In this document: positions 22,801 to 25,800 of the stretch, piece by piece | Layout: each line of letters begins with the position of its first letter | Position numbering within the stretch: the stretch's first letter is position 1 | DNA from: Branchiostoma lanceolatum | Taxonomy: Eukaryota | DNA length: 64,000 nt | Assembly (NCBI RefSeq): GCF_035083965.1 | Contig: NC_089740.1 | Span: 9,108,596-9,172,595 of the forward strand | Reading direction: 5' to 3' | Notes under the pieces: model-generated | What the model saw: the letters and a program-made list of their open reading frames with translations, nothing else | The model's database searches: none | What the model was told of the DNA's origin: nothing | Position numbers and translations under genes: made by a program

Positions 22801-25800
22801 TAAGAGTACCTGTCTTCTGTGTGAATTTCCTATAAATAACAACTTAAAATATAAGTCCCTTGGGTGGTCAATCTAGGGTTGAACTTTAAGTGTTAGTTTC
22901 TTACAAACGTGTACCTGTCAGTCAAAAACCTGTGACGGTTTTACTGATCACCTCTGCATAAGGATCGCCCGGACATTTTGGCCACTTTCTTTCCCATTGA
23001 CTATAGCATATAGTAGCCACCTGTCTACTACTGTGACCAACTTTAATTTGTGCAAGTCCATCGAGTGGTTAATATGGACAGGTTTGACTATAGTTTTAAA
23101 AAATGCCTTTTTTTGATTTGCTGTAAAACTAATTTTGTTGTTGTTTTGCTGTAGGATGATAAGAAAGAAGACAAGGAACAGCCCAGGGTTGTGCAGCAGA
23201 TATCCGTGGAGAGTGAAGGAGGGGAAAACGAGGAGGAATTGGTCAGGCTGACATTCACCCTCAAGCAGCTTATTCGCAAACTGCACATTACGCAACCAGT
23301 GGAGAATGTCATGGCTCTTATCGGAAAGAGGTGGGAGAATATCTTTGTCATGCTGCAGATAAACGTCATTAAATTATAGATTGAATTGTGGTGTGGGCTT
23401 ACTGCTAATAATCATGCTTCTGAACCACAAGGTCTCAGCTATAATCTGACCCAATTGCTCTAGACTTTATCGTATCTATTTATTCATCAATCTTTAGGGC
23501 GGCCCCTTCATTTAATTGAGTAACTGATTTCTAAGGGAGCTCTTACAAAATCATAACAAATCAGGATATAAAACAAGGATAACTTTAACATAAACTGTCG
23601 TGAATGAATAATGCATTCACAATAATGTAACATAAGCAGAAACGATCAAACATAGGACTATGAAGTAAGCATGCAGAAAATTTTAACCTCCTTTTCTTTG
23701 ATTTAATGTTTAGATACCCAGAGGACCTGGAGAGTTTCTACCAGAGCCGACTGCCGGGCACGTGGGATCCTGACCAGGCCGGCAAACGTATGAAGCTCCC
23801 CACACCAGAGACATGGGAGACGCAGGTGTCACTCAGGGGCAACAAGGCAGAGGTCTGGGAGGAGCTCATTGGTCAGTAGTTTGTGGACTGTAGTATAGAC
23901 TCTTCTCATTGCTTTTTCCTTAGCAACCAGTGGTTTGAATCTTGAGGTCTAGGAAGAGCTGATTGGTTAATATTTTGTGGTGATGTAGACAATGTTTTCA
24001 TTGGTTGTTCCTTAGCAACAAAAGATTTGAATCTTAGGCGTCTTGATGGACAATAAAGTAGAGGTCTGGGAGGAGCTGATTGGTCAGTATTTTATGATCT
24101 GGACTCTTTTTATTGGTTGTTCCTTAGCAACAAAATATTTGAATCTAATGCAGAGGTCTATCTGTTGAGAAACTTTAAGGAGATAAATTACAAATTAAAG
24201 AAATTACAATTTCATTGTGTGAAGTAGGAATTCAACTTAAAAAATGAAAGGCTTAGTAACTAAAGTTAGATTTTCAAAGTTTTTGATGCCCTTCCAAATC
24301 AGAAAAAATATGAACTGTTATGTCAGATTTAAACCAATACTTTTCAGACCAGAAAGTTGCTGTTTTTGTTGATGTAGTACAGTCATGTACATGAAAGCTG
24401 ATATTATTATTATTAGAATAAACTATAGCCTGAAAGTGTTCAGAATCTTGCTGTTGCCTACAATGTCTCAATCTTTTTTAGATCACAAGAAGCTGCCGTT
24501 CATGGCGATGTTGCGTAACCTACGGAATATGCTGACCGCCGGGATCAGCTCCAAGCACCACAGCTGGGTCCTCCGCAAGCTGACGGACGAGGGCGCCGTC
24601 ATCAACAGTCGACAGTTCCCCTTCCGATTCTTCTCAGCGTACGAAGTCTTGAACCAGCTGGAGAAGGATTTGACAGCAGCAGGTATGACTGCAATTATTA
24701 TTCTGTTACTTGGTTTCCAACGAGATCTATTGGTGGCAATGACGTATCCTAAGGACAAAAGTAACATGATTGGCCACTGAGATCTGAAAGCACCCAGACA
24801 GAGACAAGCATTTCTTTTAAAAAATGCCAATAATGCTGCTTTTACCCTTTGAATACTGTCATTGCCACCAATAGATCTTCTTGGAGATAAATAATTTTGA
24901 CCCACCCCCTCTTGCCTTTAAATAAATCCAACTTGCATTCTGACTGGGTTTTGATGATTGCAGTCCTTAGCACAAAACGTTAAGCTATACATCCGTCTTT
25001 CCTGAAATTATTCGTGGAATATTTCACAGTTCAGATCCATGGACATTTCCCTATTCTGTTATCTGACCCAGATTTGGTGCAAATCAAAGTAAAGGCTACC
25101 TAAGCACAGAGCCTGTAATCATAGACTTCAACAGTGTCAGGTAGATTGGAAAAACTATATCCAGCACTCAAAAATGCCCAGGTCTACTGTTAAGATGATT
25201 CATATTCAATAGAAATAGCCCTGACTGTAAGTTAAATATTGAGATTGACCATGGAAGATAAGCTTGAATCTCAGTAAGTTAAACTTGATCAAGGAATTGC
25301 TGTTTTAGAATTACATATTGACATTTCCATTTACCAACTTATAGAATCTGGAGTACCACAACAGAGTGGGCGTGGACGCGGAAGAGGGCGTGGTGGAGGG
25401 CGTGGCAGAGGGAGGGGCAGGGGTGGAAGGGGAGGGATGAACTTCAAGGCTGCATTGAACTCTGACCCTTCGGCCAAGAACACCAATGCACACATGTCAG
25501 TAGACTTATTGTTTTTTATTGTACAATGCTATGAAATGAATATTTGATTCATGTCAATATATTCATCAGTTCAATTTTATCCTCTGTGAGGTGACACAAA
25601 TGTCTCCACAGGTCCCTGTCAAGCATGACAATGCAGAGTTTGTCATCTTGAAAACCCACATTCTCTTCGATCACATTTTTAAGTCTCAAAGATGGGAGGC
25701 TGAACCTACAATTCTCATACGTAGTGCCGATGTAGATACCATGATTATAGACGCTATTTATCTTTATTATAAAACTCTATCTCTTTTGTCCACATCCAGG

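Follow-up and report, generated by a model that had tools for sequence, protein, structure and literature searches.

The 64-kb stretch of amphioxus (Branchiostoma lanceolatum) DNA analysed here (NC_089740.1, positions 9,108,596 to 9,172,595; called the window in the following) is eukaryotic, with about 40% GC and short exons. On its forward strand it carries the orthologue of TEP1, the vault/telomerase-associated protein, and exon 8 of this gene encodes an uninterrupted run of arginine and glycine residues, an RG/RGG box, in the linker between the TROVE ring and the vWA-like domain. The features of the gene around this exon are the following, in coordinates of the window:

19866..43851, + strand: coding region of the TEP1 orthologue; 40 coding exons from ATG to TGA, about 2717-2725 amino acids, spliced model without internal stop.
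24482..24682, + strand: exon 7; last helices of the TROVE ring, ending in phase 1 (..DLTAA + G); a block of 90% identity to B. floridae.
25343..25344, + strand: acceptor AG of exon 8 (caacttatag/AATCTG); B. floridae has the identical sequence over the final 12 bases of the intron and the start of the exon.
25345..25495, + strand: exon 8, the exon flagged in the sequence-only reading; 151 nt (3n+1), residues 635-685, with E-SGVPQQS followed by the RG box and a tail.
25368..25436, + strand: RG/RGG box; residues 643-665, 23 residues with nine RG dipeptides including three RGG.
25383..25420, + strand: weak 12-nt periodicity within the RG box; 3.2 copies, 80% match, Tandem Repeats Finder (TRF) score 48.
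25437..25495, + strand: non-repetitive tail of exon 8; 19 residues and two bases of a Met codon.
25496..25501, + strand: donor GTCAGT of exon 8 (ACACAT/gtcagt).
25800..25980, + strand: exon 9; begins with the completion of Met, then GLKYDL, the helix leading into the first vWA-like strand.

The 40-exon model was built with the guidance of the full-length RefSeq TEP1-like protein XP_078576926.1 (P0241; 2718 amino acids, B. floridae x B. japonicum assembly), onto which all 40 modelled exons map in order. Pfam analysis led to TROVE (PF05731) at residues 307-718 (E 5.7e-110, profile positions 15-442 of 442), C-terminal to it the vWA-like DUF5920 (PF19334) at residues 746-922 (E 5.1e-16), DUF4062 (PF13271, a TIR-like NADase) at residues 953-1051 upstream of NACHT (PF05729) at residues 1212-1378, and WD40 in exon 25 (E 9e-41), which also matches the TEP1 propeller families PF25047 and PF25048; the further WD exons are colinear with XP_078576926.1. 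Vertebrate TEP1 (p240) shows the same order of an N-terminal low-complexity region, TROVE, DUF5920, DUF4062, NACHT and WD40 propellers. The top HMMER matches bear the name TEP1 or TEP1-like and come from Branchiostoma, sea urchin, crinoid, bivalves, lamprey and others, and the flanking exons joined without the RG exon gave 'telomerase protein component 1-like [Branchiostoma floridae]' as best match with 83% identity, in a search that yielded proteins of about 520 amino acids or less and missed the long TEP1 models. The pairing of DUF4062 with NACHT has been described as a defining mark of the TEP1 family (bioRxiv 10.64898/2026.09.21.753143), and the domain order found in the window agrees with the TEP1 architecture given in recent preprints (bioRxiv 10.64898/2026.09.21.753143). 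From the Pfam domains and the colinearity with XP_078576926.1, the gene is the amphioxus TEP1 orthologue, as had been proposed in the sequence-only reading, and its placement of the RG exon in frame at the junction of a Ro60-like helical ring and a vWA domain was likewise borne out.

Two other places of the gene model were noted on the + strand. The end of exon 25 (35531-35555) offers a GT donor at 35531 or a GC donor 24 nt later at 35555, both in frame. The model uses the later GC donor, which adds EIKEPTRL(TG), and the GT donor at 35531 is as in the B. floridae RefSeq protein; donor 35555 of the model is probably 24 nt too far. In the intron after exon 6 (23944-24146), duplicated copies of the end of exon 6 were detected (similar open frames at ~23946-24165), which also match several sites of the B. 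floridae intron; the exon-intron boundary seems to have been duplicated locally in tandem.

Within 25345-25495 frame 3 is open and frames 1 and 2 hold stops, and the RG peptide could be confirmed in frame 3 with the acceptor and donor originally described for it. The final G of exon 7 and the AA of exon 8 form a Glu codon at junction 7/8, and the AT of exon 8 and the G of exon 9 form the Met codon at junction 8/9. As the exon is 3n+1 nt long, skipping would shift the frame, and exon 7 joined straight to exon 9 indeed runs into a stop after two codons. The exon boundaries had been suspected to be weak, a concern that did not hold, since the splice sites are ordinary: GTCAGT is also the donor of exons 6 and 30 of the same gene, and B. 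floridae has GTAAGT at exon 8. A 59-nt candidate exon at 25030-25088 with good AG/GT sites was rejected, as it puts exon 8 in a stop-bearing frame and is absent from the conservation with B. floridae.

For comparison, the orthologous locus of B. floridae (CM022888.1 of GCA_000003815.2, L001) and its second haplotype (L002) were used. In blastn against L001 the conserved blocks coincide with exons, and the sole block between exons 7 and 9 is 25324-25532; within the 1.1-kb interval from exon 7 to exon 9 the introns are not alignable, and identity collapses a few bases beyond the splice sites. The orthologous exon (L001 9897-10059) has 163 nt, which is also 3n+1, with one extra 12-nt insertion (GRGG), and the frame is preserved because the indel comprises 12 nt. 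The RG box differs by nine substitutions, each of them synonymous and at a third position (probability ~5e-5 if positions were equivalent), without a single residue change, whereas the remaining 26 codons of exon 8 show five amino-acid changes and one synonymous change. Per codon position 1/2/3, the divergence amounts to 0/0/39% in the box, compared to 6.2/3.9/22.8% gene-wide. Haplotype L002 differs by two further synonymous changes and one Gly-to-Arg in the box, with the composition kept. Judged from these alignments, the codons of the RG tract drift but its protein sequence is conserved, and 25345-25495 is shown, as far as genomic DNA can tell, to be a genuine and constitutive coding exon 8 of the TEP1 orthologue.

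The 23 residues of the box are the longest R/G-only run in the six-frame translation of the window, with a runner-up of 10 residues and a longest run of 8 in 200 block shuffles of the window. The di-RGG pattern and the tri-RG pattern RG-X(0-4)-RG-X(0-4)-RG are both satisfied. Four different Arg and four different Gly codons are in use, so the box is not a pure DNA microsatellite. When searched with phmmer against PDB sequences, it aligned with RG regions of SmD1 (query 342-363 to SmD1 95-116), ribosomal protein S10 and MRE11. In composition and repeat pattern it is like the boxes of the RGG/RG (GAR) proteins SmD1/SmD3, RPS10, MRE11, FUS, hnRNP U, nucleolin and fibrillarin; it is, however, an internal loop between folded domains, whereas the RG tracts of the Sm type are terminal tails. 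The C-terminal GR tail of SmD1 is symmetrically dimethylated and bound by SMN.

As an observation at the nucleic acid level, the sense strand of the RG box contains eight runs of at least three G and a canonical G-quadruplex match (25410-25436), of which the + strand of the window has only three in all, and ViennaRNA with G-quadruplex terms puts a quadruplex in the box (-52.5 versus -47.6 kcal/mol). The motif may have arisen as a side effect of encoding RGG, or it may be an mRNA feature.

The occurrence of RG tracts in the TEP1 family was surveyed by an exhaustive HMMER search of 1.84 billion representatives, which gave 2314 matches, of which the best 150 were used together with earlier matches. 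The linker, defined as the segment from the helix of the YE[VA]L region to the YDxxLLxRY helix, was extracted in 168 proteins and has a median length of 50 residues. RG/RGG clusters were present in the linker of 16 of these 168 proteins, a count that may be slightly raised, as the query contained the RG box and RG-bearing homologues may be slightly enriched among the best 150. For the second large disordered loop of the module, 1 of 106 proteins had such a cluster, the TEP1-like protein of the bivalve Mya arenaria (P0100), whose ring-vWA linker is without an RG box and whose cluster lies in this Lys-rich/acidic loop of the TROVE module. The RG-bearing linkers are:

Branchiostoma, amphioxus: P0241.
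Solemya velum, bivalve: P0097, KAL5022413.1.
Mizuhopecten yessoensis, bivalve: P0099, XP_021378535.1.
Macrostomum lignano, flatworm: P0186.
Gocevia fonbrunei, amoebozoan: P0114, transcriptome-derived.
Apiculatamorpha spiralis, provoran: P0131, transcriptome-derived.
Cyanophora paradoxa, glaucophyte: P0148.
Environmental eukaryotes: nine sequences.

The tract had been supposed to be a lineage-specific feature that vertebrate TEP1 probably lacks. The second half of this statement was correct for all ten vertebrate representatives (two horn-shark proteins, lamprey, lungfish, paddlefish, caecilian, lizard, peccary, seahorse and electric eel), whose linkers comprise 81-88 residues with 20-25% Arg+Lys and at most one RG dipeptide; the first half was contradicted by the alignment with other taxa, with RG clusters in bivalves, flatworm, amoebozoan, provoran and glaucophyte. 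Linkers of the two echinoderm representatives, sea urchin and crinoid, are Lys/Arg-rich without RG repeats. In nearly all lineages of the family the linker is basic; vertebrates have it rich in Arg/Lys, echinoderms and many protists in Lys. The bivalves Solemya and Mizuhopecten carry 9 and 7 RG dipeptides, respectively, in the same linker as amphioxus, those of Solemya in the orthologous exon. Unlike the amphioxus box, the bivalve tracts consist of RG rather than RGG, are interrupted by other residues and are flanked by helical segments (QQGIIEEA.., NWWLDRKKK..) that are missing in amphioxus. The amphioxus linker, with its pure R/G tract, also differs from that of vertebrates by having no '..AAMTIPxxYR..' segment.

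The exon structure was compared between the window, Solemya (L003), Anneissia (L004) and Petromyzon (L005), with intron positions marked by a caret:

Amphioxus window 25345-25495: linker exon of 151 nt; upstream intron before E, downstream M^GLKYD.
Solemya velum, L003 20966-21158: linker exon of 193 nt; LEKDYCKA^Q and K^ETLYD.
Anneissia japonica (crinoid), L004 6986-7076: linker exon of 91 nt; LQVKLEKT^E and K^ENEEYD.
Petromyzon marinus (lamprey), L005 10949-11114: linker exon of 166 nt; LEARIQKG^E and R^MAAGCD.

In all four species a phase-1 intron interrupts codon 11 after YE[VA]L on the upstream side, and a phase-2 intron stands three to four codons ahead of [YC]D on the downstream side. 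As positions and phases are the same in all four, the linker exon predates the protostome-deuterostome split and is no insertion. The exon as such can therefore not be regarded as a lineage-specific addition, as had been supposed; lamprey, crinoid and bivalve each have a discrete exon in this position, and only its content differs. Lamprey shares its positions and phases with amphioxus, and the linker is basic in both.

For the structure of the module an AlphaFold2 model of the Solemya orthologue was calculated (1190 amino acids, 58-sequence alignment). The ring is predicted with a pLDDT mostly above 90 for residues 252-652, ending in a long last helix (616-652), and is followed by the Solemya RG box (about 653-681) as coil with a pLDDT below 50 between confident helices. 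Thereafter helices are predicted at 682-702 and 707-728, and the first vWA strand at 732-741; helix 707-728 and this strand are the equivalent of amphioxus exon 9. Foldseek against the PDB with this model gave Ro60 structures first with a probability of 1.00 (1yvp, 1yvr, 2i91, 9nen, 2nvo and others), including RNA complexes, as well as vWA structures including the vWA of Ro60; neither Foldseek nor the sequence search led to a TEP1 entry in the PDB. Ro60 (TROVE2/RO60) and bacterial Rsr thus have the ring-plus-vWA fold in common with the TEP1 module at an identity of only 12-15%. Ro60 itself presumably has a short linker at the ring-vWA junction, and the bacterial TROVE/Ro-like homologues retrieved show no RG tract there.

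Taken together, exon 8 is the amphioxus version of an ancient linker exon, and its conserved RG tract probably acts as an auxiliary RNA-binding arm. The linker exon connects the final helix of the Ro60-like ring (TROVE) with the helix that runs into the vWA-like domain, and the RG tract would form a disordered, strongly cationic loop beside the RNA-binding ring. RGG/RG motifs make non-specific electrostatic and stacking contacts with RNA, and their arginines can be methylated. Such a loop could serve as an RNA arm of low specificity, through which vault RNA, telomerase RNA or other small structured RNAs held by the TROVE/vWA module would bind with higher affinity or a faster on-rate, and it may be tunable by arginine methylation like other RG/RGG boxes. 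As nearly all linkers are basic, although in varied forms, the general need appears to be a basic flexible linker, for which the RG box is one recurrent solution. With the RG box under selection and recurring in distant eukaryotes, the linker is a likely third RNA-contacting element of the module.

Several results weigh against an RNA-binding RG arm in a constitutive exon. RNA binding and methylation of the tract are deduced from its composition, and the structure was predicted for a bivalve orthologue rather than for the amphioxus protein. A strict tri-RGG pattern was absent from the window and from both B. floridae haplotypes when searched by regular expression, the first RGG of the box being 7 residues away from the next; tri-RGG is reportedly RGG-X(0-4)-RGG-X(0-4)-RGG, a definition said to be that of Thandapani et al. 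2013. The tract is patchy, variable in length and absent from vertebrates and echinoderms, so TEP1 works without an RG box, and the contribution of the box may be small or merely electrostatic. Furthermore, the support for the RG exon in transcripts is the computed RefSeq model only. In the older B. floridae model XP_002596572.1 (P0095) the protein jumps from ..FPFRFFSA to GLKYDL without the RG tract, and the annotation of GCA_000003815.2 splits TEP1 in three (L001 3414-9978, 10001-16575 and 16908-26575; 656, 505 and 1340 amino acids), with the first model ending at a frame-2 TAG inside the RG exon and the second starting at the Met after the box.

Both conflicting models were analysed at the level of splice sites. 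The jump in XP_002596572.1 corresponds in the window to a cryptic donor inside exon 7 (GC/GTACGA at 24639/24640), the use of which would remove the conserved YEVL helix together with exon 8, and the model has other gaps; it was therefore rejected as proof of exon skipping. The split annotation is consistent with a second GTCAGT in B. floridae, 4 nt beyond the true exon 7 donor, the use of which would give frame 2. No such site is present in the window, and the TAG is gone from the second haplotype, so that the split was rejected as evidence of a frame-shifted junction. Both models are regarded as prediction errors at the RG exon, caused by its low complexity. Neither exon skipping nor a frame-shifted junction, the two cases named in the sequence-only reading as arguments against the exon, is supported by an evidenced transcript. 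XP_078576926.1 and XP_078576927.1, on the other hand, contain the RG exon in frame, and the partial B. floridae 'TEP1-like' model P0001, which starts at the Met after the RG box, splices AHM/GLKYDL as predicted in the window. A search with the exon 7-8-9 junction peptide for transcript-derived fragments gave no Branchiostoma match among its candidates, which were capped at 8000 and dominated by RG-containing words.

That the segment lies outside the mature mRNA, as a G-rich intronic repeat or a rarely included cassette, would fit that two of three B. floridae gene models have no tract in frame and that the sense strand is G-rich with a canonical quadruplex motif, but it is highly improbable: skipping breaks the frame after two codons, the model that skips must delete the YEVL helix via a cryptic donor, and the out-of-frame TAG of the split annotation is missing from the other haplotype. 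In addition, both species and both haplotypes keep the frame, the 3n+1 length and the phases, the substitutions follow a coding pattern, and lamprey, crinoid and bivalve have orthologous exons. If the exon is translated, the box might still be neutral low-complexity filler, a slippage-prone (CGN-GGN)n stretch expanded by chance in a linker that needs only length, flexibility and solubility. The 12-nt period of the box, which is of the same size as the indel between the species, the length of 91 to 193 nt of the linker exon among animals, the patchy occurrence of the tract with its absence from vertebrates, echinoderms and Mya, and the fast evolution of the non-RG parts of exon 8 all suit this explanation. 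We nevertheless consider it rather unlikely, as 0 of 23 box residues changed despite 39% third-position divergence, the heterogeneous codons speak against recent slippage, and the sole non-synonymous difference between haplotypes replaced Gly by Arg. RG clusters are moreover found in 16/168 linkers compared to 1/106 in the other disordered loop, and the linkers of nearly all lineages are basic rather than random.

A function in protein interaction or localization, with (GR)n as a methyltransferase substrate and Tudor docking site, or as a signal recognized by karyopherins that directs TEP1 to a compartment or the vault, would fit the alignment of the box with the C-terminal GR repeat of SmD1 and the prediction of the tract as an exposed loop in the Solemya model. 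The tract is, however, located inside an RNA-binding module and not at a terminus as in Sm proteins, and lineages with Lys-rich linkers could not use arginine methylation, so that we regard this function as unlikely; the present results do not distinguish it from RNA binding, and the two are not mutually exclusive. With similarly little expectation we consider an extended form of the RNA-binding explanation, according to which the RG/RGG box would be an ancestral eukaryotic part of the RNA-sensing module of TEP1, kept from Provora, Amoebozoa and Glaucophyta to bivalves, flatworms and amphioxus. It would have a direct share in capturing the RNA ligand that controls the downstream STAND NADase, with arginine methylation as a switch, and would have been replaced secondarily by Arg/Lys-rich sequence in vertebrates and echinoderms. 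On this view, amphioxus would be the nearest relative of vertebrates to offer the ancestral mode for study. Ancestral RG content and several independent origins are both compatible with the 168-protein sample.

In recent work TEP1 is presented as a STAND-type NADase, with its N-terminal TROVE/vWA module as a possible RNA sensor (bioRxiv 10.64898/2026.05.01.722283, 10.64898/2026.09.21.753143). How this module engages RNA is a question to which the RG linker of the auxiliary-arm reading offers a simple handle, and the importance of the tract would grow only if the TEP1 NADase were found to use this linker in sensing RNA. The tract is already contained in a public RefSeq protein and is a further case of a well-known motif class in a known gene, spread wider than first assumed; beyond this, the finding is ordinary low-complexity variation in a known gene. 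Of the papers searched, the three in which TEP1 and RGG occur together mention neither of them in the title or abstract. As a practical yield, two public TEP1 models of B. floridae prove wrong at the RG exon and the newer RefSeq model XP_078576926.1 right.

Besides TEP1, the window contains the following open frames:

46983-52376, - strand: uninterrupted open frame of 1798 codons just downstream of TEP1, lying where the AT skew is strongly negative (48-52 kb) and matching no Pfam family at E<=0.001.
57065-58444, - strand: open frame of 460 codons, apparently intronless, with a complete protein kinase domain (Pkinase, E 1.6e-44).
55540-56676, + strand: open frame of 379 codons with leucine-rich repeats (LRR_8, E 1e-17).
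13562-14041, - strand, probably together with 14452-14739 and 15205-15429 (- strand): exons of a membrane receptor of the HlyIII/PAQR type (PF03006, E 1.1e-12), upstream of TEP1 and on the opposite strand.

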